A DNA stretch of 64,000 bases from a virus (Duplodnaviria > Heunggongvirae > Uroviricota > Caudoviricetes), in IMG/VR virus record IMGVR_UViG_3300042484_000872, positions 48,338 to 112,337 of that record. The stretch is one strand, 5' to 3'. The position numbers and the translations under genes are program-made. Positions 8,017 through 54,574 of this stretch are shown piece after piece (positions within the stretch are counted from its first letter, which is position 1; each line of letters begins with the position of its first letter). The notes below the pieces were generated by a model, which saw nothing but the letters and a program-made list of their open reading frames with translations, searched no databases and was not told the origin of the DNA.

Positions 8017-9021
8017 CTAAACAGCATCTGGTAAAGGTGGTGACGGATTTGGAATATTACATTTTAATGTATCACCACACAACACTGTAGTAGAACCATA
8101 AATAAATGCATGCGGTGTAGTAAGATGAATAAGTTGTATTACACCACAATGTATTGTTGTATATCCTTCAGCTTCTCTAATATATTGTACTGTATTACCA
8201 ACTACAAATGTTTGTCCAGCTACTGGTGCATCATCATAAAATCCTTCACCACATTCTTGTATTAAATAACAATTTTGAGGAGGAGGTGGTAAAGTTGTAG
8301 TAGAAGTGGTAGTAGTAGATGTACTAGTACTAGTGCTACTAGATGTAGTTGTAGTGGTAGTAATCTCATCAGCATCTCCTGTGAATGAACAATCTAACAC
8401 TGTAGTAGTGGTGGTGGTTGTAGCACAAGCTGCTCCAGTTATAACTATTGCATTAACTAATGTAAGTGATGTATTTAAAATACAACCTGTATACACCGTA
8501 GTACCAGAACTTATTATAATTCCTCCAACTGGAACACCTTCACAATTTAATGCAATCCAACTAGCATCATTTAATATTGATTCTATTGTATAATTAACAC
8601 AAGCTAAAGCAACTGTTGTTGTAGTGGTAGTGGTTGAACTAGATGTAGAAGTAGTAGTTGATGTGCTTGTACTGGTAGAACTAGATGTTGTTGTTGTAGT
8701 TGATGGAGGTGGTGGTCCACATTGAATAATTGTTTCACAATTAATTGCACCATTTATTATTGCTATGAATTCAGAATACTCTTGAGGATTATCTTGAATC
8801 ATATCTAATATATGTTGTGTTAATTCTATTCCACATATGAAATAATCTAACTCTTGAAAAGCTACACTAATGTTATCTTGGTTATTAATTCCTGAACAAG
8901 ATAAATTTTCACCATCATAAACCAAATCATCTGTAGTTAAACCATCATGGTTACATACAGAAGAATTTGGATTAGTTGGAGTTTCATTGCAATTACAATC
9001 TGATGGTAAAAACTTCCACAT
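8017..9021 (-). CDS. tail fibre-like paralog (Cys-rich N-domain, two Thr/Ser linkers, distinct C-terminal domain)
   Basis: N-terminal domain resembles those of 5682..7061 and 9025..10104 (paired Cys motifs, ...FICG...). Long S/T tracts. Confidence 0.5.
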   Translation of the reverse strand: MWKFLPSDCNCNETPTNPNSSVCNHDGLTTDDLVYDGENLSCSGINNQDNISVAFQELDYFICGIELTQHILDMIQDNPQEYSEFIAIINGAINCETIIQCGPPPPSTTTTTSSSTSTSTSTTTSTSSSTTTTTTTVALACVNYTIESILNDASWIALNCEGVPVGGIIISSGTTVYTGCILNTSLTLVNAIVITGAACATTTTTTTVLDCSFTGDADEITTTTTTSSSTSTSTSTTTTSTTTLPPPPQNCYLIQECGEGFYDDAPVAGQTFVVGNTVQYIREAEGYTTIHCGVIQLIHLTTPHAFIYGSTTVLCGDTLKCNIPNPSPPLPDAV

Positions 9022-23523: not shown

Positions 23524-24102
23524 CTATTTATATCTAATATTAAACTTTTTACTTTTATTAACACCTCTACAATTTGATGATATATTACTTTGAGATACAT
23601 TTAAAAACTCTGCAGCTTTTAATGATGATTCAAACTCTTGTATTATATTATTACTATCATCTAACAAAAGTACAATTTTTTGTTTAGTTAAACCTAATTT
23701 TTTATTATGTTCACTACTTCTAATTACAGTTCTTCCTTTTAATGAGTTAGCTATTTTTAATCTAGTTTCTTTTTTAACTTCCCTTCCTAAACAATTTCCT
23801 GCAACTGGAGTAGCATTATACCCACTGCTATATGAGTTATATTTATCTATATAATACTGTTCTTGTAAAAGAATGTTTTCATTACTGCATGTTTCTACTA
23901 TTTCAAAAATAAAACTATCTTCTCCGTATTTATTCCAAGCTCTTTGTAACTTAATTGAATGATGTTTATTCTTTTTAAGATTAGTTATATGACATCTTTT
24001 TCGTTTAGTTAATCCATGAATAGATGATCCTATATATACTTTATCTGTAGATATATTTTTTATCATGTAAATAACTCCTTCATATATCTGACTTAGGCTC
24101 AT
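23524..24102 (-). CDS. GIY-YIG homing endonuclease
   Basis: GVIYMIKN...KVYIGSS (GIY...YIG), conserved R/H/N downstream, C-terminal basic DNA-binding region. Confidence 0.65.
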   Translation of the reverse strand: MSLSQIYEGVIYMIKNISTDKVYIGSSIHGLTKRKRCHITNLKKNKHHSIKLQRAWNKYGEDSFIFEIVETCSNENILLQEQYYIDKYNSYSSGYNATPVAGNCLGREVKKETRLKIANSLKGRTVIRSSEHNKKLGLTKQKIVLLLDDSNNIIQEFESSLKAAEFLNVSQSNISSNCRGVNKSKKFNIRYK

Positions 24103-26021: not shown

Positions 26022-26070
26022 TTATAGGCTCTTCTTAGGGCCTTTTTAAAACTCCTTAATAACAAATAAA

Positions 26071-26382
26071 ATGAACAAACATTTAACAAATGAACAAATA
26101 GATAACAGACTTGGTGCTGTTATGAATGCATTTAAAGAAGAGAATGCTACAAGTGTAATGAATATGAACTCTGTAGCTAGTTTATTAACTTCTGGTACAT
26201 ATAGTATCAATGGTGATGCTGAGATTAATGAGCAAGTAGCTAAATCAATCAAGAGATTGACAAGCTTTGTTAATAGAATATCTGATATAGTGCATAAAGG
26301 CACTGAAGAATGTGATCTTGATTCTCAAATTGATGAGAATCGTAAATTTTGGGAAGAACTTAAATCAATATTAAATCCTTAA
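26071..26382 (+). CDS. hypothetical protein
   Basis: 103-aa ORF; TCCTTAATAAC motif 7 nt upstream of the ATG. Confidence 0.5.
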   Translation: MNKHLTNEQIDNRLGAVMNAFKEENATSVMNMNSVASLLTSGTYSINGDAEINEQVAKSIKRLTSFVNRISDIVHKGTEECDLDSQIDENRKFWEELKSILNP

Positions 26383-26387
26383 TAATT

Positions 26388-26594
26388 ATGAAATCAACAA
26401 AAATTATGTTAGCTTTTATAGCTACGCTTATCGCTACATGGACTCTATTTAGTCTTATTGGATATTTATTATCTGATATGTCATTAAAAGAATGTTACAC
26501 AAATGGTGGAACAATTGGTTGTATGGCTGTATTTGGTTGGATACCAAGTATTATTGTAGGTGCAGATATTAGTGATAAACTTAACAACTATTAA
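26388..26594 (+). CDS. small membrane protein
   Basis: 68 aa, two hydrophobic segments. Confidence 0.45.
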   Translation: MKSTKIMLAFIATLIATWTLFSLIGYLLSDMSLKECYTNGGTIGCMAVFGWIPSIIVGADISDKLNNY

Positions 26595-26596
26595 TA

Positions 26597-26959
26597 ATGG
26601 ATCATCCAATATTTAAAGCTGCTGTATTGATTGGAAGTCAAGAAGAATCTGATATAGCTAAAGATATATGTCTTAAATATTCTCTTCCTGTTTGGGAAGA
26701 GATTGATTTAGGATTTGATTGGGTAGATTATGGTGATGATGATGTTCCTACATATTTATATTATGATAGTGAAAGAGATGAATCTGAAAAATCTCGTGTA
26801 GGTTTTTTTGTTGATGATATGGATAATAAAAAGAATTATAACATTATGTCAATAGAAGAATTTGAAGCATTAGCTAACACTCTAAATCCAGAATACGATA
26901 GTATAGAAGACATATTGTCTAAACTAAAAGAAATAAATAACATCCTTAATAACAAATAA
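26597..26959 (+). CDS. hypothetical acidic protein
   Basis: 120-aa ORF. Confidence 0.5.
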   Translation: MDHPIFKAAVLIGSQEESDIAKDICLKYSLPVWEEIDLGFDWVDYGDDDVPTYLYYDSERDESEKSRVGFFVDDMDNKKNYNIMSIEEFEALANTLNPEYDSIEDILSKLKEINNILNNK

Positions 26960-26960
26960 C

Positions 26961-27101
26961 ATGAAAAAGAAACCTATTACATCAATAGTATCATTGTATA
27001 CTATTACAGCTATTCTATTAGTTATCATCTTCACTATGGAGAGCTGTGCATCAAGATGCAAACAACAAAGAAGATATTGGTCTAATCATAGAGCTGTATA
27101 A
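26961..27101 (+). CDS. 46-aa membrane peptide (MKKKPITSIVSLYTITAILLVIIF...)
   Basis: Hand-translated; below the ORF-track cut-off. TCCTTAATAAC motif 7 nt upstream; abuts neighbours on both sides. Confidence 0.3.
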   Translation: MKKKPITSIVSLYTITAILLVIIFTMESCASRCKQQRRYWSNHRAV

Positions 27102-27103
27102 TT

Positions 27104-27295
27104 ATGAGCACAGAACAAATTGAACAAAGGTTACAGACTATCAAGAATGAAATACATGCATTAGATAGTCTAAGAGATGCACATGATGATACAAACATAC
27201 ATGTGATTGAAGAGCAACAAGACATATTGTTTCACGAAAGACAACAACTAACATTCTTGTTAGAGAGTTGTTTTGATGATCTTATAGGATTATGA
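27104..27295 (+). CDS. hypothetical protein
   Basis: 63-aa helical ORF. Confidence 0.4.
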   Translation: MSTEQIEQRLQTIKNEIHALDSLRDAHDDTNIHVIEEQQDILFHERQQLTFLLESCFDDLIGL

Positions 27296-27453
27296 TAACA
27301 TTATATATTATTACATCATATCTAGTGATGCTAGGTGTGATGATAGAGAGTTACGAGAAATTAGATGATATGAAAGGTTATGCAATAGCATCATACATCT
27401 TTAGTCCAATAGTATTACCAGTTCTTATTGGTATGATGCTAGGAAAGAAATAA
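27292..27453 (+). CDS. 53-aa membrane peptide
   Basis: Hand-translated MITLYIITSYLVMLGVMIE...; ATGA overlap with the previous stop. A further 32-aa hydrophobic ORF follows at 27453-27551. Confidence 0.3.
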   Translation: MITLYIITSYLVMLGVMIESYEKLDDMKGYAIASYIFSPIVLPVLIGMMLGKK

Positions 27454-27565
27454 TGGGAGAGTTTATAGCAAAGGTAGTCATAAGCATAGTCTTGTGGCTA
27501 CTAGTTGCTAGAGTGTTCCTATACTTTGGCAAGAAAATATTTAAAGATTAATCAAATCAAACACA

Positions 27566-27805
27566 ATGACAAAACAAAAATACAACATTGAAGAAGCATT
27601 CCAACAAGTTCAAGAACTAGTAGATGCTCAAGAGAAAGCATTGAGAACAGCTGACACTCTATTACATCTAAAAGATTGTATCATAGAGATATTAGAAGAC
27701 CAAAAGAAAATTAATGAAAAAGAGAATAAGATTCTTAGAATCTGTCTGTATTCATTAGTAGCATTGTATTCAATAATATTTATTGCATCATATTTTGCGA
27801 AGTAG
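27566..27805 (+). CDS. hypothetical protein with C-terminal TM helix
   Basis: 79-aa ORF. Confidence 0.4.
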   Translation: MTKQKYNIEEAFQQVQELVDAQEKALRTADTLLHLKDCIIEILEDQKKINEKENKILRICLYSLVALYSIIFIASYFAK

Positions 27806-27970
27806 AATATCTAGAGGTACATTGGTAGCATCAACAGACAGATTTAGAGCAATCAAAGCTAAAAGGTTGATAGTAGAAGTGATATATAATTTCAGAAATG
27901 GAATTATAAAGGAGAAGACAATAGACATAAGACAAACAATAAACCAGTAATCAATTAATTCCTTAATAAC

Positions 27971-28468
27971 ATGAGCACACAAACATCAGGTGGAATATTC
28001 ACCTTTGACCATGGTCAAAAAAAACTTAACCTTGCAATTGGTGTATCACCAGAATATTTAGAGGATCTTGGTACACAAGTATCAAATCTATTGAAAGATT
28101 TTATTTTTGATGATGATAAAAATCTTAGAGAAGATACATCACCAAGTCAATTAGTAGAAATATGTGCTAATGAGTTTAGTTATTCTCAATTAGTAGTTTT
28201 AGCATCATTCTATCTACAAGATAGAGTAGATGGATTTGCTAAGAAATTAGAGGACAAATTGAAAAATATGAAATCATCAGCTAAAGCTATAAGATTAAAT
28301 AGTGATGATGTTCCAGATAACATCAAAGAGATGCTTGAAAATCTTACAGAAGGACGTAGTGAAGGTGATCCAATTGATGGTGATTCATTACCACAAGAGC
28401 TTAAAGACTTTCTTGATAAATTAGCTGAAGAGCAACAAAGACAAGAAGGAGATGGTGATGATGACTAA
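27971..28468 (+). CDS. hypothetical highly acidic protein
   Basis: 165 aa, ends EGDGDDD. TCCTTAATAAC directly abuts the ATG. Confidence 0.5.
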   Translation: MSTQTSGGIFTFDHGQKKLNLAIGVSPEYLEDLGTQVSNLLKDFIFDDDKNLREDTSPSQLVEICANEFSYSQLVVLASFYLQDRVDGFAKKLEDKLKNMKSSAKAIRLNSDDVPDNIKEMLENLTEGRSEGDPIDGDSLPQELKDFLDKLAEEQQRQEGDGDDD

Positions 28469-28730
28469 TCCAACAAGAAGAAATCTATCTGGTGTGTATA
28501 TATTTGATACTCTTCCAGGTGATAAGAGAAGACAACCTACAGTGTTTGAAGATTGTACACAAGAGAAGCAACAAGAATGGTTAGATAGTCTAACTACAGA
28601 AGCTCTCAAGAATCTTGCTAAACATTTAGGCACAAAACTTAGAGACTTAGGTGATATGTTTGATATCATGAGTGGATCTGAAGAAGATGATGATGATGAT
28701 GATTATCCAATTGACATCATTAATGAATAA
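28452..28730 (+). CDS. hypothetical acidic protein
   Basis: 92 aa, C-terminal SEEDDDDDDYPIDIINE. Confidence 0.45.
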   Translation: MVMMTNPTRRNLSGVYIFDTLPGDKRRQPTVFEDCTQEKQQEWLDSLTTEALKNLAKHLGTKLRDLGDMFDIMSGSEEDDDDDDYPIDIINE

Positions 28731-28736
28731 TTAATA

Positions 28737-28764
28737 AGAGAGCTGTAATGGCTCTCTTTTATAT
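28737..28764 (+). terminator. intrinsic terminator AGAGAGC-tgtaatg-GCTCTCT + TTTTAT
   Basis: 7-bp stem read directly; the track's ATG at 28748 lies inside the loop. Confidence 0.5.
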
Positions 28765-28771
28765 CAAAGCT

Positions 28772-30088
28772 ATGAGTAAATATAGATTTAAGACAGAACA
28801 AGAGTTTAAATATGATGATTTTTGGAATGATGAATATGAATGCCCAGATAACTGGTCTGAAGAAGGTGATATGAATGGTTATATGGGACAAGATGTTCCT
28901 GATAAATTCATTAAACTAATTGAGAAAGGTCATTCATTTACTTATGATAATTGGTTATTCCGAGCAAACAATTGTATCATCAAAGAAATAGAAGTAGTAA
29001 ACGTAGAAGAAGTATTAGAACAAATTAAATTAAATAATTCCTTAATAACAAAAGAAAAAATGAAAGCAACAACAGTAAAGAAATCAGCAAAAGCAAATCC
29101 AGTAGCAGAGAAGTTCGTATTTATGGACAAAACAGTTAACATTCTAAACGTAGGATTCCAAACATGTAAGAATGTTGTATTATATGGTCCAGGAGGACAT
29201 GGTAAATCAGAAATGACACTTGATTTTCTAAAAGCAAAAGGTATTGAACCTTATGTTATTACAATGGGTACAGGTATGACTACAGACAGATTGTTTGGTG
29301 GTCTTGATATACCTATGTTTGAAAAGACAGGTAAAATAGAATATCTTGTAGAGAATTCATTTATGAATCATCCTTTTGTTATATTCGAAGAGATGTTTGA
29401 TGCTCCTGATTTCATCTTAGAACAATTAAAGGATATATTATCAAGTGGTACATTCAGAAATGGCACACAGATATTTCCTATTGAAACTAAGTTCATCATT
29501 TGTTGTACAAATAGAACTCGTGATGAATTCTCAAAGAATATGTCTTTGAAAGCATTGATGGAGAGATTTCCTCTTGAATTGAATGTTATCTGGGATAACT
29601 ATACAGAGATCAGCTACAATAAATTACTAGAGAGTAAGTTTGGTGTAGATAATGTAGATCCAGTGATTCCATATTTGTTACAAGAGTATGCTAAGAATGG
29701 TATTACAATTAGTCCACGTGTTGCTGTAACAGCATATCAAGTGTATGACCAATGTGGACCAGAATCATTAAGCTTTATTGCTGAGTTCTCTAAGAAACCA
29801 TCATTGATAGCTGAAGCTATTAAGAAGTTTGAGGCTACAATTAAGTTTAGAGATTTATCTGCATCTCTTACATTCAGTATTGAAACTCTAACTCATTTAC
29901 CATTGGTATCTAGAGATGATGAGAAGATGTACAAAGATGCTATTGTTGATCTTAACAAGCAATTGACAGACATCAAAGGATTAGCAGTGAGTGATGATAT
30001 TGCACAAATACATTCACAATTAGTAAAAGCTGCTACACAAGCTAAAGAGAAGTTTACTAAGAACCTACAAATTGCTTCATTCATATAA
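28772..30088 (+). CDS. MoxR-like AAA+ ATPase
   Basis: Walker A GPGGHGKS, Walker B-like VIFEEMFDA, sensor-1 CCTNRT. Start moved from 28748 (inside a hairpin loop) to the ATG at 28772 (MSKYRF...). Confidence 0.6.
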   Translation: MSKYRFKTEQEFKYDDFWNDEYECPDNWSEEGDMNGYMGQDVPDKFIKLIEKGHSFTYDNWLFRANNCIIKEIEVVNVEEVLEQIKLNNSLITKEKMKATTVKKSAKANPVAEKFVFMDKTVNILNVGFQTCKNVVLYGPGGHGKSEMTLDFLKAKGIEPYVITMGTGMTTDRLFGGLDIPMFEKTGKIEYLVENSFMNHPFVIFEEMFDAPDFILEQLKDILSSGTFRNGTQIFPIETKFIICCTNRTRDEFSKNMSLKALMERFPLELNVIWDNYTEISYNKLLESKFGVDNVDPVIPYLLQEYAKNGITISPRVAVTAYQVYDQCGPESLSFIAEFSKKPSLIAEAIKKFEATIKFRDLSASLTFSIETLTHLPLVSRDDEKMYKDAIVDLNKQLTDIKGLAVSDDIAQIHSQLVKAATQAKEKFTKNLQIASFI

Positions 30089-31479
30089 TGGCAAGTTTAT
30101 GGGATAATGGGTATGATGATTACTACGGTGATTATTATGCCCCTTCCTATACTCCTAAAAAGAGTAGTGGAGGCTGGAAAAGTAAATATGGTGGTAGTGG
30201 ATGGTCCAAGAGTTCTTGGTCTAATTTCTCATATGTTGTATCATATGAGGATAATGATGAAGATCTATTTGTTAAAGATCCAGTTAACTATTTAACACCA
30301 AGTGCTAAAGACATCAAAGCTAAGGTGAGAGGTGTTAAGAAGCAAGAATCTATTGATTTGATCAAAGAGTTAGCACGTGTGTGTTATTTCAAGATGATTG
30401 ATGAAACAGAATATGTAGCTGATAAGTATAAAGATGTAGATAATTTATCTGATGAAGACAAAGGAGAATATGCAAAGAAGAAACCTTTGCTTGATGCTGT
30501 GTATCAACAATATGTTCCAGGATTTACACCTCTTGAACAAGCTATTGCTATCTATCTGAAGCTTAAAGAATCTCCTACTGGAGAAAGAAATGAAGATGAT
30601 GATGATGAAGAAACAGATACAAGTAAAGCATTTGATTTTGATAGAAGTCTTTATTCTGATCCAAATATCAATGAACAATTAGATCTAAATGAACTAAGCA
30701 AGGATAAGAAGATGGAGATTATGAATCACATATCTCTTGTTGGTAAGTTTGGTAGTGAGTTTAAAGTGGAGAAAGAGATATCTGAGAAGATAGTGGCTAA
30801 TTCTGATCAATATGCAACAATGATTATGAGAGATTATGCTCAAATACATATGATGCCATTATATCAGAAGATGTTTCCTAATTTCAGAACTAAATTCTTA
30901 ACTAAAGACTTAACAGTGAATGTTCCTGTTGATAGAAAAGAACAGATTCAGAAGATTATTATTCTATTAGATTATTCTGGTAGTATGTCAGAAGAACAGA
31001 AACAAATTTGGGTAAATGCTATATTAATAGACAGATTCAAGTATGTTATGAGAGGTGAAGCTGAAGTGTTCTTTAGTTATTTTGTACATGATCCAGAGAA
31101 ATTAGACTTCCAACATATAAAGAATAGAGAAGATGTAATTGCATTTTGGCAAACATTCTCTAATAGTCCTAATGGTGGAGGAACAGAAGTTGGTGATATG
31201 GTTGAATATGTAGCTAATGAAATATCTAGTGGTAAATTATGTAATCTAGATGTTAATCTATTAGAAGAGAAGCCAGAGATATTAATTATCAATGATGGTC
31301 AGGATTCTATAAATAGTGAGAAGTTTCCTTATAAAGTGAATGCCATATCATTAATGCAATTTAGTGATGAGTTGAAAGATCTTTGTCTTGATACAGATGG
31401 TAAACAGATTAAGGTGACAGAAGACTTGGAAGTGTTCAGCTATGCTAAAGGTGTAGGTGAACAACAAATTAAATTATAA
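30088..31479 (+). CDS. von Willebrand factor A (VWA) domain protein
   Basis: MIDAS motif LLDYSGSMSEE; Gly/Tyr/Ser-rich N-terminus. Start codon overlaps the AAA+ gene's stop. Confidence 0.6.
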   Translation: MASLWDNGYDDYYGDYYAPSYTPKKSSGGWKSKYGGSGWSKSSWSNFSYVVSYEDNDEDLFVKDPVNYLTPSAKDIKAKVRGVKKQESIDLIKELARVCYFKMIDETEYVADKYKDVDNLSDEDKGEYAKKKPLLDAVYQQYVPGFTPLEQAIAIYLKLKESPTGERNEDDDDEETDTSKAFDFDRSLYSDPNINEQLDLNELSKDKKMEIMNHISLVGKFGSEFKVEKEISEKIVANSDQYATMIMRDYAQIHMMPLYQKMFPNFRTKFLTKDLTVNVPVDRKEQIQKIIILLDYSGSMSEEQKQIWVNAILIDRFKYVMRGEAEVFFSYFVHDPEKLDFQHIKNREDVIAFWQTFSNSPNGGGTEVGDMVEYVANEISSGKLCNLDVNLLEEKPEILIINDGQDSINSEKFPYKVNAISLMQFSDELKDLCLDTDGKQIKVTEDLEVFSYAKGVGEQQIKL

Positions 31480-31713
31480 TTTGATTAATTATTTGGTTTG
31501 TTACTCCCTGTAGATTATATTTGCAGGGATATTGTATAATCACTGGGGACTATAAACGCCACATAGCAGTTTAAATAGTCAATGTATGTGCTGCGTATCA
31601 TTGAACTTACCTATATTATGCATATTATGAGTTTAGAACTCACTAGAGTGATACAAAAAGAATAGGGAAGCTGAAAACTATATAGAGTAGGTACAAAATT
31701 AAACCAATGAACA

Positions 31714-31896
31714 ATGAAGTATCTAATAAGTATAGTCTTTACGTTCTTATCTGTATTAGCCTTTATGAAACTATTGTTTCTATTGAATAAGGGCAATACT
31801 GTTGCAAATGTTTTTGCTATAGTAGGTATATTCTTATTGGGATATATAATTGCAAGAACAAAGTTATTTACACAATTAAAATCAAAGAAAAAATGA
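31714..31896 (+). CDS. small membrane protein
   Basis: 60 aa, hydrophobic, overlaps the lipoprotein start by 4 nt. Confidence 0.3.
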   Translation: MKYLISIVFTFLSVLAFMKLLFLLNKGNTVANVFAIVGIFLLGYIIARTKLFTQLKSKKK

Positions 31897-32738
31897 AAAA
31901 AGTAGTATTATTAGGAGCATTAGTTGCTATGTTTGCAACATCATGTACAACAGCTGACTCAAGTGAAGTGGCATTAGTGGTAGATCAAATTGGAAATGAT
32001 AAGGGAATTCCAAACATTCAAATGGAATCAGGATTCATATTCTATTTCCCACCAACACAAGATGTATACACCTATCCAACATCTGTACAACATAAAGTGT
32101 GGAGTGCAGACAATCAAGAAGGATCAGAAACAGATGAGCACATTGATGTAACATCATCAGATGGAGCTACATTTGGTCTTGATGTATCTATAAACTTACA
32201 ATTACAAAGAGCTAAGGCATCAGAGTTGTTTATAAAATACAGAGTGGACATGGATGAGTTGATACATACAAGAGTAAGAACTATTGTTAGAAAAGAATTA
32301 TTAGATAATGCTGTTAACTTTGCATCAGATAGTCTTTTACAACATAGAAATATATATGAGGCCAATGTAACTAAGACATTAACATTATCATTAGAGAAAG
32401 AAGGATTCACATTGAATAACATTGCTGTATTAAAGATGGCATTACCATCATCATACAAGAAAGCTATTGAAAGAAAGATTGCTGTGTTACAAGAAACAGC
32501 AACTATCATCTCTCAGACTAAACAAGCTGAACAAACAGCATTGAAGAAAGTGGCATTAGCTAAGGGTAATTACGAAGCAGCACAATATGATGCTAAGACA
32601 AAAGAAATCTTATCACAACCTAAGCTTCTTGAATTATACAGAGCAGAAACAGAAAGAGTATGGGCAAATAAAGGCAGATCTCCATATGGTTCTAATAATG
32701 TATTTGGTTCTGCATCTGGAATTCTTTTAAATAGATAA
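31893..32738 (+). CDS. lipoprotein, SPFH/band-7-like
   Basis: Signal peptide with lipobox MKKVVLLGALVAMFATSC. The rest has prohibitin/HflC-like helical segments (weak, by eye). Confidence 0.5.
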   Translation: MKKVVLLGALVAMFATSCTTADSSEVALVVDQIGNDKGIPNIQMESGFIFYFPPTQDVYTYPTSVQHKVWSADNQEGSETDEHIDVTSSDGATFGLDVSINLQLQRAKASELFIKYRVDMDELIHTRVRTIVRKELLDNAVNFASDSLLQHRNIYEANVTKTLTLSLEKEGFTLNNIAVLKMALPSSYKKAIERKIAVLQETATIISQTKQAEQTALKKVALAKGNYEAAQYDAKTKEILSQPKLLELYRAETERVWANKGRSPYGSNNVFGSASGILLNR

Positions 32739-33048
32739 TTGCACAGTGGTCCTACATCCACACACATTAAACTTGTAGGATTGGTCTCTGATGTTAGGGA
32801 ACACTTGTGAGTTGCAATGATAAAACTCTCAAACAGGCTAAACATTGAACCAGATAGTGCATGAGGCCCATGCTACGAGTAACTATCAAAGATACTATCA
32901 GTAATGGTAGTTGGATGTTATGATGAATGGTGCTCTCTATGACAATTTGCACATAGGAGCACACATTTATCTAATTCAATTTTAAGATTATTAATATAAA
33001 TGCTTGGTACTAATCATTTTTATTTGTACATTTGTAAAAAATATTATT

Positions 33049-33534
33049 ATGTGGAAACAAATAGAAGACTATGATTATGAAATAAATCCTGAAGGAATAG
33101 TAATGAGAATTTCAACTAAAAGAATTAAAAAATCTTTTAAAAGACCTGATGGATACATTGGTATTCAATTGTACAAATCTAAAACAGAGATTAAAAACTT
33201 TCAGTTACATAGATTAATAGCAATTGCATTTATTAATAATCCTGAAAACAAAGACATTATTAACCATAAAGATTCAAATAGAGAAAACAATTCTTTAAAT
33301 AATCTTGAATGGGTAACAAAAAAAGAAAATGACAAACATGCTTATGAATTTGGTAATGCTTCAAACAAAGGTTCTAAAAATGGTTTTTCTGTATTAACAG
33401 AAGAACAAGTATTGAAAATAAGAAAAAAAAGAGCAGAAAATAAACTAACTTATCAAAAATTAGCAGAGTTGTATAATGTTTCTTACGGTTGTATTGCAGG
33501 TATAATACAAAGAACAAATTGGAAACATATTTAA
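33049..33534 (+). CDS. HNH homing endonuclease (HNH_3 / NUMOD4-type)
   Basis: MWKQIEDYDYEINPEGIV... start context, HRLIAIAF, INHKDSNRENNSLNNLEWVTKKEN. Start moved to Met-16 of the track ORF. Confidence 0.6.
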   Translation: MWKQIEDYDYEINPEGIVMRISTKRIKKSFKRPDGYIGIQLYKSKTEIKNFQLHRLIAIAFINNPENKDIINHKDSNRENNSLNNLEWVTKKENDKHAYEFGNASNKGSKNGFSVLTEEQVLKIRKKRAENKLTYQKLAELYNVSYGCIAGIIQRTNWKHI

Positions 33535-34169
33535 AATAATCTAAACCCTGACAGAAACTGTATAGTAATATATAGAATGGATATAGCTGTATGAGATATG
33601 CTATTATGTACCATTGGGAGTTCTCAGCAAGTAGTTAATCAGGTGTGAGTTCAGTAATCCTCCCAATTACACATCGAAAGGAGGTAATTAACTACGTGAC
33701 CCTACTCTTATATCTAACAATCGTAATTGATTTGCAGAAACAATAGTACATAAGAACAGACTATAAGAAAGAGGGTGCTAAACAATATTTAAAGCTCGAG
33801 GCTCAATCATTTGATTTGAGCACGCTACCTCGGACTATGATAAGTGTCCTCACATGAGGAATTTGGGCTCGACTGGAATTGACTGGTTATTATAGATTAT
33901 ACAATTCAGCCAGAGAGATAACTGTAAACTAAGGTGAATTATTTTAAATGGCAAAAACACAAGTCGTGTAGTGGCTCTAGGAGCAAACGCACAAATCGAA
34001 GCTAATATGAACAAAGTATTCTCATTATTAAATGAGGATGTAATCGTTGGTTTAGCAGCCTAAATTACCTCAAGATTTCTCTATTAGATTAAATAGAGTG
34101 GTGGGAACGTTAAGCCTAGCTTGACCCTAAATAAGCTGTATAAAATTGTATTTTTGAAGTAAGCAACAC

Positions 34170-34194
34170 GAGGGTTCGAATCCCTCCGAGTCCA
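34170..34194 (+). other. orphan tRNA 3' fragment (T-arm GAGGG-TTCGAAT-CCCTC + acceptor 3' strand CGAGTCC-A)
   Basis: Canonical T-arm read directly. No complementary 5' acceptor strand (GGACTCG) anywhere upstream. Confidence 0.35.
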
Positions 34195-34215
34195 CTGATT
34201 ACCAGTTAGTTAAAT

Positions 34216-34326
34216 GATTGAGTGGCGGAATTGGTAGACGTTATGTTATGTACAGATACTAAGCAGAAGTGAGATTGCTGTACTAAGCTCACATCCTGAA
34301 TACAGGTTCGAATCCTGTCTCAATCA
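34216..34326 (+). tRNA. tRNA-like gene, class-II-type D-arm, ~20 nt longer than a canonical tRNA; anticodon not assignable by eye
   Basis: 5' GATTGAG pairs perfectly with 3' CTCAATC. D-arm TGGCGGAATTGGTAGACG, T-arm ACAGG-TTCGAAT-CCTGT, discriminator A. The middle 60 nt contains a duplicated ACTAAGC and stems GTACAG/CTGTAC and GTGAG/CTCAC. Confidence 0.4.
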
Positions 34327-34547
34327 CAGCAGTTACTTGACGCAAATAGCACAGTAACAGACATTGGATAGTTTGCACATCACGAATGTTAAGTCCTTTC
34401 CACGCAGAGAAGGAGTTGAGTACTTATAGGGAAGAAATGTTCCTAATCTCAACAATTGACATCTCCCAAGGGAGAAGGTCCTATTAAAGCCTCTATTAAC
34501 ATAGGGGCTTTTCTTATTATGTATTAATCCTTAATAACTAAATAACA

Positions 34548-35330
34548 ATGAAAGAAAAGTTTATACCTTATACAAAGAAAAAGTATTCTATTACATCTGA
34601 TGGATTAGTTTATTCTAACTATAAAAATACTAACATTGGTGGAAAGTTTTATGAAAAGAAACTTATCAGCAAATATCTACAACAAAATTGTGCTGTTCTT
34701 AATTTACAATTTGGTAAATGGTCCAAAACCAATAAATCAACAACTGTTTTTATGAATACATTAATGAAAGATATATTTAAATTAAAAAAACCAGATACAT
34801 TTCATATGTATGATTTAAGACCTAAGAATGGTAATGTGTTCGATAGTTCATTAGATAATCTAGAATGGAGAATTAGATCCACTTCTGATTTCAATTTCTA
34901 TCCTCAACCATATTATGATAAAAAAGGCAATATAACATCTAAACGTTGCTCACATTGTGGAGAGATACATGATATTAATCGATATGTATTACAGAGGCCT
35001 AAGAGACCAGATGAGAATAATACATATAAGAACAAATGTAAATCTTGTAGACATGATCAAGAATGGAAACTTATAAATTCAGATGATAAAAAACTTGCTA
35101 GATATAAAGAACAACAAAAAAGATATACAAATTCTGAAAAAGGAAAAGCTTATCATAGAGAATATGGAATAGTTTGGTCTAAAAAAGATTATGATAGAAT
35201 AGGTGATCATTATATAAGTAATTGCTTAAAAGTAACAAGAAAAGAATTAACACCAGAATTACGAGAAATATTTAAAAAGAAAATAACCTTAAAACGAAAA
35301 TTAGAAAATCATGGCAACAAAGAAAATTAA
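34548..35330 (+). CDS. HNH-like endonuclease with Zn-finger (HNH_3-like LDNLEW motif)
   Basis: EKFIPYTKKKYSITSDGLVYSNY (NUMOD4-like), FHMYDLRPKNGN...LDNLEWRI, CSHCGE...CKSC zinc finger. TCCTTAATAAC 9 nt upstream. Confidence 0.45.
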   Translation: MKEKFIPYTKKKYSITSDGLVYSNYKNTNIGGKFYEKKLISKYLQQNCAVLNLQFGKWSKTNKSTTVFMNTLMKDIFKLKKPDTFHMYDLRPKNGNVFDSSLDNLEWRIRSTSDFNFYPQPYYDKKGNITSKRCSHCGEIHDINRYVLQRPKRPDENNTYKNKCKSCRHDQEWKLINSDDKKLARYKEQQKRYTNSEKGKAYHREYGIVWSKKDYDRIGDHYISNCLKVTRKELTPELREIFKKKITLKRKLENHGNKEN

Positions 35331-35529
35331 AACAATGAATGTTACAGATGTAATCAAAGTAACACAAGAGATCGGTGATGTACTATCAAGTCAATATCAC
35401 ACATCAAAAGATTTAAAAGTGGCTCAAGGAGCTTTATCAGCTTATAAAACTGCAATTGGTGCAGCAAAAGCTCAATTGATTTATAAGAAACTAACTGGTA
35501 CACCAACTAGTATAGAATTCTTTCAATAG
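35311..35529 (+). CDS. hypothetical protein
   Basis: 72-aa ORF. Confidence 0.4.
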   Translation: MATKKIKTMNVTDVIKVTQEIGDVLSSQYHTSKDLKVAQGALSAYKTAIGAAKAQLIYKKLTGTPTSIEFFQ

Positions 35530-35555
35530 ATTATTAATCCTTAATAACAATAGAA

Positions 35556-35702
35556 ATGAAAACAATCACAATGAAACCAACTGAGTTTTATCAGTTTAGA
35601 CAATTAGCATTCGCAATGAGTATAGCGTTTGCATGTACAATAGCACATGGTGTGTATATTGTAGAAGCCAATATAAACCAGCTAGAACAGTTGGGTTATT
35701 AA
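35556..35702 (+). CDS. 48-aa hydrophobic peptide
   Basis: Hand-translated MKTITMKPTEFYQFRQLAFAMSIAFACTIAHGVYIV.... TCCTTAATAAC 7 nt upstream. Confidence 0.3.
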   Translation: MKTITMKPTEFYQFRQLAFAMSIAFACTIAHGVYIVEANINQLEQLGY

Positions 35703-35769
35703 GGAGGGCAAAAGGGCTCTTGTGTAATAGCAGGAGCCTAATTGTTTAATCATTAATAGAAGAAATACT

Positions 35770-35997
35770 ATGGATAATATAACAGATAAAATTATTATTA
35801 GACCAATGTACAAAACAGATCTTAAATATATTAAGGGAATGAATGTAGCAATACTTGAGTCTACAGGAGAAATAATTAAAAGACATTTTGACAATGTTGG
35901 ACAGTATATACCAAAACAATATAGTAATGTGCCAGTGGAATTGTTATCTTATAATGATATAGATTGGGAACTTGCAGAATATAAAATTAAAAAATAA
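35770..35997 (+). CDS. hypothetical protein
   Basis: 75-aa ORF; variant motif TCATTAATAG upstream. Confidence 0.4.
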   Translation: MDNITDKIIIRPMYKTDLKYIKGMNVAILESTGEIIKRHFDNVGQYIPKQYSNVPVELLSYNDIDWELAEYKIKK

Positions 35998-36007
35998 ATT
36001 AGATAGT

Positions 36008-36127
36008 ATGAATAAATTTGAATGTAGTGAGTGTGGTACAAAATACAGCTCACCAGAAACAACACCACCTCCAGGAATCAAATGGAGTGATGGACATGTG
36101 TGTACACCTAAATCTGTAAACAAATAG
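36008..36127 (+). CDS. 39-aa Zn-ribbon peptide (CSECG...HVCTP)
   Basis: Hand-translated MNKFECSECGTKYSSPETTPPPGIKWSDGHVCTPKSVNK. Confidence 0.3.
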   Translation: MNKFECSECGTKYSSPETTPPPGIKWSDGHVCTPKSVNK

Positions 36128-36130
36128 AAT

Positions 36131-36472
36131 ATGGAACCTATACATAAGTTTAACAACGGTAGAGGAGCTATGATCTGCATAAAATGTAGAACTATTATAT
36201 CTACAGGTCCTGCAACTAAAGAGTTGTATTGTGAAAAATGTAAACCTAAACAAGAAACTACTCTTGAAGAAGCTGCTAATAATTATGCTAATCAAAAAGG
36301 GAATATTCCTACAACAGAATTAGAAGATGCTATTTTCAAACAAGGATTTTTAGATGGTGCTAAATGGCAACAAGAACAGATAGGTAAGTCAGAATTTCTA
36401 CAAAAATTAAGAGCAACTTTATCTGATGCAGAAGCAAGAAGATTAATATTTGAAACATTTAAAAACAAATAA
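36131..36472 (+). CDS. Zn-ribbon protein
   Basis: CIKCRT...CEKCKPK, 113 aa. Confidence 0.5.
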   Translation: MEPIHKFNNGRGAMICIKCRTIISTGPATKELYCEKCKPKQETTLEEAANNYANQKGNIPTTELEDAIFKQGFLDGAKWQQEQIGKSEFLQKLRATLSDAEARRLIFETFKNK

Positions 36473-36475
36473 GAT

Positions 36476-36685
36476 ATGAAACCTTCAGATGTAAAATCAA
36501 GACAACTTGATATAAAAGTATCTCCAAATGAAATAGAAAGATTTGGAGGTGTAGACAACATCAAGAAACTATTAAGAGCTGTTATACGTGATGTATCTGT
36601 TGAAACAAATGTGAAAATGGAATATGTTAAACGTTATGAGATACAAAAAGAGAATCAAAAATGGTATAATTTAAAAAACAAATGA
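36476..36685 (+). CDS. hypothetical protein
   Basis: 69-aa ORF. Confidence 0.4.
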   Translation: MKPSDVKSRQLDIKVSPNEIERFGGVDNIKKLLRAVIRDVSVETNVKMEYVKRYEIQKENQKWYNLKNK

Positions 36686-36921
36686 GTAAAGAAATAGAAA
36701 TAGGTATCACCGTAGGTGGTGTATATGTAACAGTGAGTGGTACATATCATCCAGAAGAACCAAGAGAAATGTATGATGGTAACATGGAAGGTTATCCAGG
36801 AAGTTATGCTGAGTTTGAATTAGAATCAGTACAAGTAGATGGCAATGAAATCATTGATTTGATTAGTGATGCCATATATGATGAAATTATAGAGAAAGTA
36901 TTAGAAAATCAAAAAGACTAA
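36682..36921 (+). CDS. hypothetical protein
   Basis: 79-aa ORF, 4-nt overlap with the previous gene. Confidence 0.4.
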   Translation: MSKEIEIGITVGGVYVTVSGTYHPEEPREMYDGNMEGYPGSYAEFELESVQVDGNEIIDLISDAIYDEIIEKVLENQKD

Positions 36922-36926
36922 AAATT

Positions 36927-37160
36927 ATGAAAATAGAAAATGGAAAGTGGGTAGACCAATATGGTGACCCTGTAACAGTATTTAATTATGATAAGATAAA
37001 AGAGATTGGAAGTAATCTTGTAAACTTATATGGTGAAGACATCACCTACAGTAGAATCAATTTGATCTCTACAATCAAAACTCTTACACCTAAACAAGAA
37101 TCAGATCTTGCTTATGTATTGAGTAATGAAGGTGCCATATCTAAATTAGCAGGATATTAA
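36927..37160 (+). CDS. hypothetical protein
   Basis: 77-aa ORF. Confidence 0.4.
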   Translation: MKIENGKWVDQYGDPVTVFNYDKIKEIGSNLVNLYGEDITYSRINLISTIKTLTPKQESDLAYVLSNEGAISKLAGY

Positions 37161-37162
37161 TT

Positions 37163-37459
37163 ATGGAAGCTAAAGATATAATCGGTAAAGAGATAGAATG
37201 TTTTGAGTTTAAAAGTGAAAACTTACTATCATACTCAAATCAACATAAACAATTATGTGGTAAAAAAGCTATTGTTCTAAACATAAATGAGTCTTATCCA
37301 CAATTTACTCTTGTAGAAATCACTTTACCAATTGGTAAAAAAGAGTCAAATCATTATCCTACAGCAGGTATCATTGAGCAATTAGAAGCAAAAGAGCTTG
37401 AGAATTTAACAATAGAAGAAATTCTAAACAACATGAAGATGCTAACGTCAAAAATATAA
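37163..37459 (+). CDS. hypothetical protein (paralog of 37463..37729)
   Basis: Shared ...GKE(I/M)..F(E/K)F...LT(I)E(E/Q)ILNN(M/I)K(M/K)LTS(K/E) C-terminus with the next gene. Confidence 0.5.
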   Translation: MEAKDIIGKEIECFEFKSENLLSYSNQHKQLCGKKAIVLNINESYPQFTLVEITLPIGKKESNHYPTAGIIEQLEAKELENLTIEEILNNMKMLTSKI

Positions 37460-37462
37460 ATC

Positions 37463-37729
37463 ATGGAAGATAAAGATTCACTTATAGGAAAAGAAATGAA
37501 AGGCTTTAAGTTTAGTGGTTATCCAACTTATATACCTCATATGCAACCATATGAAGGTGTTGTTGGAAAAATAACATTTCAAGATCATAATGTAACTCAA
37601 ATAAGATTTCCTAATGGTAGAAGTTATAATTATCCATATCCTGAATCACTTAATCATCTAGTAGTAGAAGAAGAATTAACAATTGAACAAATCCTTAATA
37701 ACATTAAAAAATTAACATCAGAATTATGA
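37463..37729 (+). CDS. hypothetical protein (paralog of 37163..37459)
   Basis: Tandem paralog; see previous entry. Confidence 0.5.
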   Translation: MEDKDSLIGKEMKGFKFSGYPTYIPHMQPYEGVVGKITFQDHNVTQIRFPNGRSYNYPYPESLNHLVVEEELTIEQILNNIKKLTSEL

Positions 37730-52218: not shown

Positions 52219-54516
52219 ATGATATTAGAAAAACAGAAAGAAGCAAATGTCCTAGAAGAAGGACAATCACAAGAATCAATTGGAATGTCCCTAGACTTAG
52301 ATTCTGCTCAGATATTGATGCAGATGTTAAGTAAGAATTTATATTCTGATGATATAGGCTCTGCTATCAGAGAATGTGCAAGTAATGCATTAGATAGCCA
52401 TAGAAGAGCTGGAGTGGACACTCCTATAATTGTTTCATTTAAAGCATCTGCAGCTAACAACTATGAGTTTTGTGTAGAAGATTTTGGTATAGGCTTAGAT
52501 GCTGATGATGTAAGAAACATTATTAGTAAATATGGTAAATCTACCAAGAGAAATTCTACAACAGAATTAGGTATGATGGGTCTTGGTTTCAAGGCTCCTC
52601 TAGCATATTCTAGTAGTTTCTATTTTGTATGTAGAAAAGATGGAATGGAACGCAAGTATATGATGTATGAAGGGGAAGATGCTAATACGATTGATCTTTT
52701 ATATGAAAAAGAAACAACAGAAGCTAATGGTGTAAAAATCATTATTCCTGTTAAGTATGCTGATAGATGGCAGTTTCACAAAAAGATTAAAGAACAACTA
52801 TGTTATTTCGAAAGTGTATACTTTGATGTACCAGAAGATTCTAAGATTACTAATGATTTTGTAATCTCTAGACATCCACACTTTCAATTCTCTGAAATGT
52901 CTACAGATCAAAACTTACACATCTGTTTAGACAATGTGTATTATCCTTTAGATTTTGAGAAGCTTGGTATTGGTAGAATTCAATTTCCTATAGGTCTTAG
53001 ATTTTCATTGAGTGATGGAATTTATCCTACACCAAATAGAGAATCTTTAAGATATACACAAGAGGCTAAGCAGATCATTATGGATAAACTTGGTCAAGTG
53101 GGAGATTATTTTGTTACTAAGTATAACGAAGCTATCACTGAGGGAAGTGACATTAAATCTATGGTGAATCACCTTGAGAAGAATGGACATTTTGTTGAAA
53201 TGGGTAATGGTACTAAATCTAAGATTGATGAGTTCATTAAATTCTCCACTGTAAAACCTATTGTTCCAGAATTAGAAGGAGTAGAACTATTGAACTTTCC
53301 TTCTTTGTACAAAACCTATAAGCAAAACATTCTTGTAGATCCATTTCCTGTTAGATATTCATTGAAATATAAAAGAATGTCTGATGCAGATAAAGGTTAT
53401 GTATGGGGATACAACTTAGAGAGTGTGTGTAATGGAGAATGTAATGTTTGGGTGTACACTGATAGAATTCCTCAAATCAAGAAAGATTTCCTAAGAGCTA
53501 CATGTAAAGAAACTCAAAGTAATTTTCTTGTTAAGAGAGGTACACCTATGAAATTAGGAATTCCTGCTAAGTTTGATCTTAAAACTTATTATCATTTATT
53601 GAAACTTGATAGATTTCCAAAAGAACAATGGAGAGATGCTATTAAAGAGTATCAACACATTATGTCTATGATTGAAGAAAACTTCACAGACCTTGATGAG
53701 TTAGAAGTTCCTCAAGATTTCATTGATAGCAAGAAGAAAGCAAAAATTAGTAAAGCTGGCTTAGCTAGTACTAAAAGACTGAAGCTGCAGGGAGAAATAG
53801 TTTGCAAGAAAGGTGTTGACTTGATGAGATGGAATGATGGAAGAAAGTGTAAATTTGATTCTCAAATCTATAAGTTAGAAGATCTTCATAAGGGTAAAGG
53901 ATTAAAGGTGTATACTCATCATGAGGACTTCTTGAAACTTGATCCTTTATATGGAATGATGGGAAAACAAAAGATGGAAGTGATTACATTCTCTAGTAGA
54001 GAACTAAAGATTGTAGAACAACTAAACATACACAATTTAATATCTTACGAGAAGTTTATGGAAGGTAAAACAGCACCATTCAAAAGAATGATTACATCAA
54101 TATTGATTCATGAGATGATAAGTACTTATAGAAGTACATTTGATCATGCAGATGCTTTGAAATATGTATCTACTGACTTATTTAATAAATTAGATAGATT
54201 AGCTACATACAGAAAAGACAATTATGTAGAAACAAATGATACATTAAGAAAAGCTATGTTAGAAGTGGCAACAGAACATAAATTGTTTGATCCACAAATC
54301 TATACAGAGTATTTAGAGATGTTAGACATATTTGAGAAGCTTACATTCTTGAATCCTGTATGTGCAAGATTAGGTTACACTCGTGAAGATGATCCAATGA
54401 TCCCAGTAATGACTGATTTGTTCAAATATTACAAGCATAGAGTAGATTTAAAGCACTATAATATCAAAATCAATGATGAAGTACTTACAGAAGAAACAAT
54501 AGATCAATTAACATAA
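52219..54516 (+). CDS. GHKL-family ATPase (Bergerat fold; Hsp90/MORC/MutL-like N-terminus), 765 aa
   Basis: N-box IRECASNALDS (ExxxNAxD), G1 VEDFGIGLD, G2 GMMGLGFKA. No TOPRIM motif seen downstream. Confidence 0.5.
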   Translation: MILEKQKEANVLEEGQSQESIGMSLDLDSAQILMQMLSKNLYSDDIGSAIRECASNALDSHRRAGVDTPIIVSFKASAANNYEFCVEDFGIGLDADDVRNIISKYGKSTKRNSTTELGMMGLGFKAPLAYSSSFYFVCRKDGMERKYMMYEGEDANTIDLLYEKETTEANGVKIIIPVKYADRWQFHKKIKEQLCYFESVYFDVPEDSKITNDFVISRHPHFQFSEMSTDQNLHICLDNVYYPLDFEKLGIGRIQFPIGLRFSLSDGIYPTPNRESLRYTQEAKQIIMDKLGQVGDYFVTKYNEAITEGSDIKSMVNHLEKNGHFVEMGNGTKSKIDEFIKFSTVKPIVPELEGVELLNFPSLYKTYKQNILVDPFPVRYSLKYKRMSDADKGYVWGYNLESVCNGECNVWVYTDRIPQIKKDFLRATCKETQSNFLVKRGTPMKLGIPAKFDLKTYYHLLKLDRFPKEQWRDAIKEYQHIMSMIEENFTDLDELEVPQDFIDSKKKAKISKAGLASTKRLKLQGEIVCKKGVDLMRWNDGRKCKFDSQIYKLEDLHKGKGLKVYTHHEDFLKLDPLYGMMGKQKMEVITFSSRELKIVEQLNIHNLISYEKFMEGKTAPFKRMITSILIHEMISTYRSTFDHADALKYVSTDLFNKLDRLATYRKDNYVETNDTLRKAMLEVATEHKLFDPQIYTEYLEMLDIFEKLTFLNPVCARLGYTREDDPMIPVMTDLFKYYKHRVDLKHYNIKINDEVLTEETIDQLT

Positions 54517-54521
54517 TTAAC

Positions 54522-54548
54522 AGGGGGACATTCGTGTCCCTCTCTTTA
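54522..54548 (+). terminator. stem-loop AGGGGGACA-ttcg-TGTCCCTCT followed by a T-rich tract
   Basis: Read directly, after the stop at 54516. Confidence 0.45.
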
Positions 54549-54574
54549 ACAATTAACAATTAAATTAAATCAAA

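Follow-up and report, generated by a model that had tools for sequence, protein, structure and literature searches.

A predicted MoxR ATPase and VWA/MIDAS gene cassette in the non-structural arm of an uncultured phage

Here we describe two adjacent genes in a 64,000-nucleotide stretch of viral DNA (positions 48,338 to 112,337 of IMG/VR record IMGVR_UViG_3300042484_000872; hereafter the window), which belongs to the ~112 kb genome of an uncultured phage. An earlier note, made from the sequence alone, had read gene 1 (28772-30088, 438 aa in its long form) as a MoxR-type AAA+ ATPase and gene 2 (30088-31479, 463 aa) as its partner with a von Willebrand factor A (VWA) domain and a metal-ion-dependent adhesion site (MIDAS). 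Our analysis leaves little doubt about the identity of the two proteins. It also makes it probable that they form a hairpin-bounded cassette in which a competent MoxR ATPase and a VWA/MIDAS adaptor remodel a target. Unless stated otherwise, coordinates are those of the window and features lie on the + strand.

The ATPase and its VWA/MIDAS partner

The best Pfam model for gene 1 was bpMoxR (PF20030; E = 1.1e-12, 48 bits, cut-off 27). The protein also exceeded the cut-off for AAA_5 (PF07728; E = 1.4e-8, 35.3 bits, cut-off 22), one of two models that the earlier note had put forward as a check. The other, AAA_3 (PF07726), gave no Pfam match at E <= 1, and gene 1 was not placed in MoxR proper, the MRP subfamily. 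Matches to bpMoxR and AAA_5 are precomputed for all 120 gene 1 homologues among the matches listed, and homologues in metagenomes comprise 791 clusters. By sequence, RavA was the only relative of gene 1 in the PDB (E = 7e-6 for a single-sequence search, 1.5e-11 when the family profile was used), and the alignment was limited to the AAA+ core, RavA residues 37-196. A search of NCBIfam returned only a sub-threshold RavA match, at 24.6 bits against a cut-off of 681.

We scored the conservation of the ATPase motifs over 39 homologues, down to 30% identity, with residue 1 encoded by ATG 28772. The P-loop, the Walker B region, the sensor 1 asparagine, Arg265 and S-P-R316 were invariant or nearly so. 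In the Walker A motif or P-loop, GPGGHGKS (29186-29209, residues 139-146), G139, G142 and K145 are invariant. The Walker B region, VIFEEMFDA (29378-29404, residues 203-211), aligns with RavA VFLDEIWKA and has invariant V203, E206, E207, D210 and A211; Glu-Glu takes the place of the Asp-Glu usual for AAA+ proteins and is followed by Asp-Ala, and homologues have the form FEE(M/L)FDA. Sensor 1, TNRT with Asn247 (29507-29518, residues 246-249; C245, T246 and N247 invariant), aligns with RavA AASNEL. The candidate arginine finger lies in MERF (29558-29569; R265 and F266 invariant), which aligns with RavA YDRM; we assign this role to R265 from general AAA+ knowledge. Similarly, we presume from knowledge of the MoxR family that Arg316 of the S-P-R motif (29711-29719; S314, P315 and R316 invariant) serves as sensor 2 in the lid domain. 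Since these motifs are invariant or nearly so, the enzyme looks active, with the features of a catalytically competent ATPase. GPGGHGKS, EEMFDA and TNRT, the three motifs on which the MoxR reading had originally been based, were all located. Besides an N-terminal domain of its own, discussed below, gene 1 has a C-terminal helical tail.

Two close relatives, L003 and L030, have a MoxR gene that is interrupted within the P-loop codons, between YGPG and GHGKS (L003 4148-5105; same position in L030). The insert is ~1 kb long and carries a GIY-YIG-like open reading frame (ORF) of 210 aa. It is either a self-splicing intron or a free-standing homing endonuclease; Rfam detected no group I intron at gathering score.

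The VWA domain of gene 2 was less accessible to profile searches. No VWA model was reached in a direct Pfam search, including the PF00092 and PF13519 models suggested in the earlier note; the best match, VWA_CoxE (E = 0.21, 11.5 bits, cut-off 26.4), covered ~20 residues, and PHROGs, NCBIfam and PADLOC yielded nothing useful. Because of this, we had to turn to structure and distant homologues to assign the VWA domain. Gene 2 homologues form 616 clusters at 90% identity, and a family profile run against 1.84 billion representative proteins recovered 406 relatives (50% identity clusters) at E <= 1e-3. We aligned 105 of these, with identity down to ~20%. The sole invariant residues in the alignment were D295, S297, S299, M300, T366 and D403, which compose the DxSxS...T...D pattern of a MIDAS. 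The DxSxS element (D295-Y-S297-G-S299-M-S, residues 295-301) is the DYSGSMS singled out at the outset and lies at 30970-30990; T366, in NGGGT, is encoded at 31183-31185, and D403, in INDGQD, at 31294-31296. Pfam matches at E <= 0.01 did appear among the 105 homologues, with VWA_2 found in 51, VWA_CoxE in 25 and VWA in 14.

Structure prediction pointed in the same direction. An AlphaFold model, Foldseek and the deep family profile place a VWA domain at the C-terminus, at approximately residues 283-463 (30934-31476). In the AlphaFold2 model, residues 291-460 have an alternating beta-alpha topology with a predicted local distance difference test score (pLDDT) of 61-83. Foldseek comparison of this model with the PDB gave 72 matches at E <= 1e-3 (best E = 2.5e-6), and those listed were almost all recognisable VWA-domain proteins or complexes holding them. 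The top matches, all VWA domains, came from ITIH1, TFIIH p44/Ssl1, integrins (I domains), CMG2 and CLCA1. We also searched PDB sequences with two family profiles, a shallow one (A1) and a deeper one (A2). The A2 profile matched the CLCA1 VWA domain and ArnB (8s05), itself a VWA protein (PMC12852372). The deeper profile was needed, as A1 gave only non-significant matches to Rpn10 and one weak match, to a GH110 glycosidase (E 0.018), that we take as spurious.

The remainder of gene 2, residues 1-285, opens with a disordered Y/G/S/W-rich tail; a conserved DLFVKDPxNYxTP motif, helices and an acidic linker make up the rest. We found no relative for this half. Residues 1-55 (30088-30252) are 58% G/Y/S/W and predicted to be disordered (pLDDT 25-31), in keeping with the low-complexity N-terminus described in the earlier note. 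Their composition and several W/Y/G/K positions are kept in the close clade and in a clade of 61-68 kb contigs. The short conserved motif, DLFVKDPVNYLTP (30262-30300), follows acidic residues; L60, V62, K63, Y68, T70 and P71 are invariant in A1, and the motif is still recognisable in distant clades, for example as DLFVKNPENYVTP and SLVVKEPENYSTP. Within the disordered linker of this N-terminal half, the stretch EDDDDEETD (30592-30618) is acidic and variable in all homologues.

The two-gene cassette and the internal start of gene 1

The two genes are joined by a stop/start overlap, TAATG (30086-30090), as had been noticed at first sight of the sequence. We examined how consistently they occur together in IMG/VR. 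The MoxR gene lay directly 5' of the VWA gene, on the same strand, in 41/41 loci with upstream DNA, from a set of 44 loci encoding a gene 2 relative. The junction is TAATG in most loci; in the others there is a gap of 0-20 nt, and two loci have an apparent larger overlap. Three distant phage-like contigs (64, 13 and 165 kb) have the same order, with the VWA gene beside a bpMoxR/AAA_5 gene. Their VWA proteins are ~20-25% identical to gene 2, and the contigs are dense with small ORFs of no assigned family, like phage early regions. Co-occurrence in related phages, the check originally proposed for the pairing, thus favors it.

Hairpins flank the pair in every clade. The upstream hairpin, AAGAGAGC-TGTAATG-GCTCTCTT (28736-28758), is positioned 13 nt 5' of where gene 1 starts. 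It was detected as a terminator-like site on the - strand, and the T-rich run that follows it on the + strand was read from the sequence. Relatives keep this hairpin with compensatory stem changes (AGGAGAGC/GCTCTCCT; GGAGCAT/ATGCTCC), and loci L011 and L025 have unrelated hairpins in its place. It would serve either as the terminator of the upstream unit or as a 5' stem-loop of the cassette messenger RNA. Downstream, a terminator-like hairpin, TCCCTGTAGAT-TAT-ATTTGCAGGGA (31505-31529), begins 26 nt past the gene 2 stop. In nearly all relatives, the VWA stop is likewise followed by a strong hairpin, whose sequence is unrelated between clades and which often has a T-run. Judged by these sequence comparisons, the MoxR and VWA genes are a fixed two-gene cassette bounded by hairpins.

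The upstream hairpin also bears on where gene 1 begins. The ORF caller places the start at ATG 28748, and we rejected this codon because it sits in the conserved hairpin loop; ATG 28772, the start given in the earlier note, is therefore the better one. From there, gene 1 opens with an N-terminal accessory domain of 96 aa (28772-29059). Its residues 1-70 are modelled as a compact alpha/beta domain, for which no recognisable relative was found.

The end of this accessory domain holds a sequence motif that recurs elsewhere in the window. A copy of TCCTTAATAAC at 29039-29049 is followed by an in-frame ATG (29060-29062, Met97), shortly before the AAA+ core, and this ATG is the candidate start of a short form of 342 aa. 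With up to one mismatch, TCCTTAATAAC has 9 matches in the window versus 2.7 expected, and 0/100 shuffles reached 9. Eight copies are on the + strand, all within 26-38 kb (26053-37702), and each lies 10-33 nt 5' of an ATG. The early-region motif that the earlier note had marked in gene 1 is thus present and enriched. Some copies of TCCTTAATAAC overlap the 3' end of the ORF before them, and two frames are seen in these overlaps. A role as a Shine-Dalgarno sequence was rejected, as the motif has the same sense as the 16S rRNA 3' tail and is not complementary to that tail.

Comparison among relatives indicates how this arrangement may have arisen. Both TCCTTAATAAC and the methionine are kept in all long-form homologues, in a linker that otherwise differs by substitutions and indels. 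The serine codon within the motif is TCC in 25/25 non-identical genes, and TCC accounts for 9/686 serine codons elsewhere in those genes (~1.3%). In L027, L032, L034, L035, L043, L046 and other loci, the MoxR ORF starts at the homologous ATG; this is the case in the 61-68 kb contig clade, among others, where the ORF is ~345 aa. In L027/L028, the 96-residue domain is a separate ORF immediately 5' (hidden Markov model E = 1.6e-27). The homologous starts in other clades and the separate ORF identify gene 1 as a fusion of the 96-residue accessory domain to the ATPase, with the ancestral start signal and ATG kept at the junction. In L034, L039 and L041, the spacer between the MoxR and VWA genes contains AACCTTAAATAAC, which resembles TCCTTAATAAC, and a near variant is present in L045.

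The candidate internal start has accordingly gained comparative support since it was first proposed, in the conserved motif and ATG, the invariant TCC codon and the homologous starts. Whether it is used, giving products of 438 and 342 aa, is in our estimate an even question. We give somewhat less than an even chance to the alternative that the internal motif and ATG are a mere relic of the gene fusion and that the 438-aa protein is the sole product. The motif region would then be no more than the linker between domains that are encoded separately in L027/L028. Because the 25 genes with TCC at this site are related by descent, the fixed codon could be inherited and not selected, and one further serine column is equally fixed in them; both points count against a functional start. 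A relic accounts less readily for the rarity of TCC elsewhere in these same genes, and for a methionine that is retained although neighboring residues and spacing shift through indels. The same motif, moreover, is found 5' of seven other starts in the window and, in the 61-68 kb clade, between the MoxR and VWA genes.

Genome setting and neighboring genes

The - strand of the window carries the terminase, portal, major head and tail genes over 1-24 kb. The + strand, from ~24 kb, carries numerous small ORFs of no assigned family and then genes for DNA polymerase, helicases, primase, rIIA/rIIB and a UvsX-like recombinase. At 4.7 kb into this + arm we find the cassette, 5' of the DNA polymerase, helicase and primase genes, in what we presume from gene order to be an early arm. 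A protein identical to gene 2 is encoded on a JGI contig of 112,245 bp, on which the gene order is unchanged. The closest GenBank terminase is that of Leptolyngbya phage Lbo-JY46 (40% identity), followed by those of Cellulophaga phages (31%) and crAss-like phages (26-31%). The portal, at 861 aa, is the longest ORF in the window.

Two neighbors were considered as further components of the cassette. Upstream, a gene preceded by a TCCTTAATAAC motif encodes a protein of 165 aa with an acidic C-terminus (27971-28468). This protein is present 5' of the cassette in 30/51 loci and belongs to no family, with a faint DdrA-like anti-restriction match (E = 0.003). We rejected it as an obligatory third subunit, since the 61-68 kb clade and the distant contigs lack it. 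A second small protein with a strongly acidic C-terminus is encoded just 5' of the cassette (28452-28730). Downstream lies a gene for a Band_7/SPFH lipoprotein (31893-32738). This candidate partner was rejected because its full-length match is confined to the closest relatives, with a short partial match in L027/L028, and also because the terminator hairpin separates its gene from the cassette. Between the cassette terminator and a 60-aa membrane ORF (31714-31896), after which comes the lipoprotein gene, Rfam places a DUF805b RNA motif at 31661-31693 (RF02914, 36.7 bits, gathering score 35.6).

Further along the same arm, a transfer-messenger RNA (tmRNA) gene is apparent at 33865-34197 (Rfam RF00023, 49.9 bits, gathering score 47). 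ARAGORN likewise calls a tmRNA, with a tag peptide that ends in LAA, and the relatives L003 (7650-8038) and L030 (9870-10205) have RF00023 matches of 69-75 bits. Directly 3' of the tmRNA, a stretch of 111 nt (34216-34326) matches the full transfer RNA model at 36.9 bits. It could be an intron-containing or otherwise unusual transfer RNA; ARAGORN made no call there, and L003 has a comparable match of 144 nt at 8039-8182. Three homing-endonuclease-type genes, one GIY-YIG and two HNH (23524-24102 on the - strand; 33004-33534 and 34548-35330 on the + strand), flank the strand switch and the tmRNA region. Finally, a rIIA/rIIB-like gene pair is located in the replication arm (52219-56122).

Known systems, rival functions and proposed mechanism

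RavA-ViaA resembles the cassette in its ATPase-then-VWA gene order, and RavA is the sole solved sequence relative of gene 1. The RavA and ViaA genes are closely coupled, and ViaA, like gene 2, ends in a VWA domain that follows a long N-terminal half of another kind. However, we detected no LARA domain or triple-helix region in gene 1, only the AAA+ core aligns, and gene 1 falls short of the RavA equivalog model. Gene 1 instead has its own N-domain and C-terminal helical tail, and gene 2 has no ViaA match. CbbQ-CbbO and NorQ-NorD, of the CGN subfamily, offer a working model for the cassette: a hexameric MoxR ATPase is combined with a VWA adaptor, and the MIDAS engages an acidic residue of the client. 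They differ from it in that neither gene 1 nor gene 2 has a match to CbbQ_C or a related Pfam family, and there is no Rubisco or nitric oxide reductase context.

By analogy with these characterised couples, the gene 1 ATPase would form a hexameric ring, onto which the VWA protein would dock. The gene 2 MIDAS would hold an acidic residue of the target protein, and ATP hydrolysis would remodel, release or mature that target. That the ATPase and the MIDAS adaptor act together seems likely to us. The target would be a host or phage complex handled during infection and not a part of the virion. We favor a non-structural target because the cassette sits among the small genes that open the non-structural arm and recurs in this way in several unrelated phage lineages, and we put the chance that the target is non-structural at one in two.

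Characterised MoxR-VWA couples include RavA-ViaA, CbbQ-CbbO, NorQ-NorD, Rea1/midasin and p618/p892 of Acidianus two-tailed virus (ATV) (PMC7159879), and viral pairs have been described more than once (PMC7159879, PMC7824862, PMC2147016); lone MoxR genes are described in cyanophages. ATV p618/p892, the group 2.2 jumbo phages and orf66/orf63 of Bacillus phage 0305phi8-36 all have a MoxR ATPase and a VWA co-chaperone encoded nearby, as in the cassette. These viral pairs are tied to virion assembly, whereas the gene 1/gene 2 cassette sits in a non-structural arm. An unlikely alternative is that the pair is an assembly chaperone, which folds, assembles or processes head or tail proteins. The published precedents of ATV and the group 2.2 jumbo phages point to assembly (PMC7159879, citing Scheele et al. 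2011; PMC7824862), and the sequence holds nothing contrary to a structural client. Against such a role, the cassette is on the strand opposite to the terminase, portal, major head and tail genes, and it lies among small ORFs of no assigned family 5' of the replication genes, a setting that is the same in the distant contigs. In addition, the vWA of the group 2.2 jumbo phages is fused to a metallopeptidase, and gene 2 has no such peptidase fusion.

The choice of bpMoxR as the best Pfam model raises a different possibility, as this model was built from MoxR-vWA-beta-propeller ternary conflict systems (PMC7159879). Like the cassette, these ternary systems and CoxD-CoxE are adjacent ATPase-VWA couples (Kaur et al. 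2020, PMC7159879). The pair might then be the regulatory core of a phage-borne conflict system, acting in superinfection exclusion or in counter-defence by copying or disrupting host MoxR-vWA ternary immunity. The 25/105 VWA homologues that match VWA_CoxE, the lineage from which the ternary systems reportedly derive, fit this proposal, as do the faint anti-restriction match of the 165-aa neighbor and a position in a region typical of host-takeover genes. However, neighbors of the cassette carry Band_7, HNH or nothing, and we found neither a third component (beta-propeller, VMAP, iSTAND or FtsH) nor an effector domain, whether in neighbors or fused to one of the two proteins. The three distant contigs likewise have no third component, PADLOC gave no meaningful match, and the location is a phage early region and not a bacterial defence island. 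As to CoxD-CoxE itself, VWA_CoxE matches gene 2 at E = 0.21 and 25/105 of its homologues at E <= 0.01, and the context is that of a phage with no cox genes. We consider a conflict-system role rather improbable.

Least probable is that the pair are chelatase-type metal-insertion auxiliary metabolic genes (CobS/CobT-, NorQ/NorD- or CoxD/CoxE-like) that mature a host metalloenzyme: the aerobic cobaltochelatase couple CobS-CobT, also found in marine phages, does join an AAA_5-type ATPase to an acidic-linker VWA protein, the layout of gene 2 (helical N-terminal half, acidic linker, C-terminal VWA) recalls CobT and BchD, some gene 2 homologues match VWA_CoxE, and there is a weak match to PHROG phrog_249 'porphyrin biosynthesis' (CobS-like, E = 3e-4), but another PHROG ATPase family scores higher, CobS_N, CobT, CobT_C and CbbQ_C have no Pfam match in either protein or in the 105 homologues, and the window holds no CobN, no ORF of CobN size and no metalloenzyme gene.

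Several results weigh against a remodelling machine with a non-structural target. The assignment of gene 2 had to be made around a direct Pfam search that missed the domain, and its AlphaFold2 model has a mean pLDDT of 53, with residues 1-285 largely unmodelled. Among the loci examined, no neighbor is conserved through all clades. The early timing of the region is taken from gene order only, and TCCTTAATAAC may be a promoter, a translational signal or operator, or a processing site. The assembly precedents in other viruses belong on this side as well.

A phage MoxR-VWA pair is thus of a known kind, and within that kind the gene 1/gene 2 family is new. Neither megablast of the locus nor tblastn of both proteins found a match in 50,697 GenBank phage records. 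The distant family member P0344 also had no match in the phage records, and a distant MoxR had weak partial matches only. No relative turned up in 185,579 bacterial and archaeal genomes (GTDB), which were covered by a pattern-seeded scan that reaches close relatives only. What is new in the family is this lack of a GenBank phage match, a VWA domain that escapes Pfam, and an orphan N-domain with a history of fusion and fission. The 406 clusters at 50% identity make the gene 2 family a large, apparently virus-only branch, which spans several uncultured phage lineages with contigs of ~65, 112 and 165 kb.

The remodelling machine could also be combined with the other modules of the locus in a more speculative, and in our view improbable, reading. 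In this phage-specific machine of three modules, internal initiation would yield two MoxR isoforms, one of which lacks the orphan N-domain, and these would form mixed hexamers, as with the two isoforms of ClpB. The Tyr/Gly/Ser-rich, prion-like tail and the MIDAS adaptor would concentrate the machine on a host complex that is dismantled early, for takeover or counter-defence. If this were true, TCCTTAATAAC would be an expression signal peculiar to the lineage and shared by a subset of its early genes.

MoxR-VWA couples are widespread and few have a known client. Because Pfam VWA models miss the gene 2 family, annotation pipelines will call its members 'hypothetical'. The fusion and fission of the N-domain, with a retained internal start, make gene 1 a concrete case in which isoform production by a phage AAA+ protein can be put to the test. 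Finally, the strict conservation of the cassette in the non-structural arm suggests that these phages share a common infection step in which a specific protein would undergo ATP-driven remodelling.

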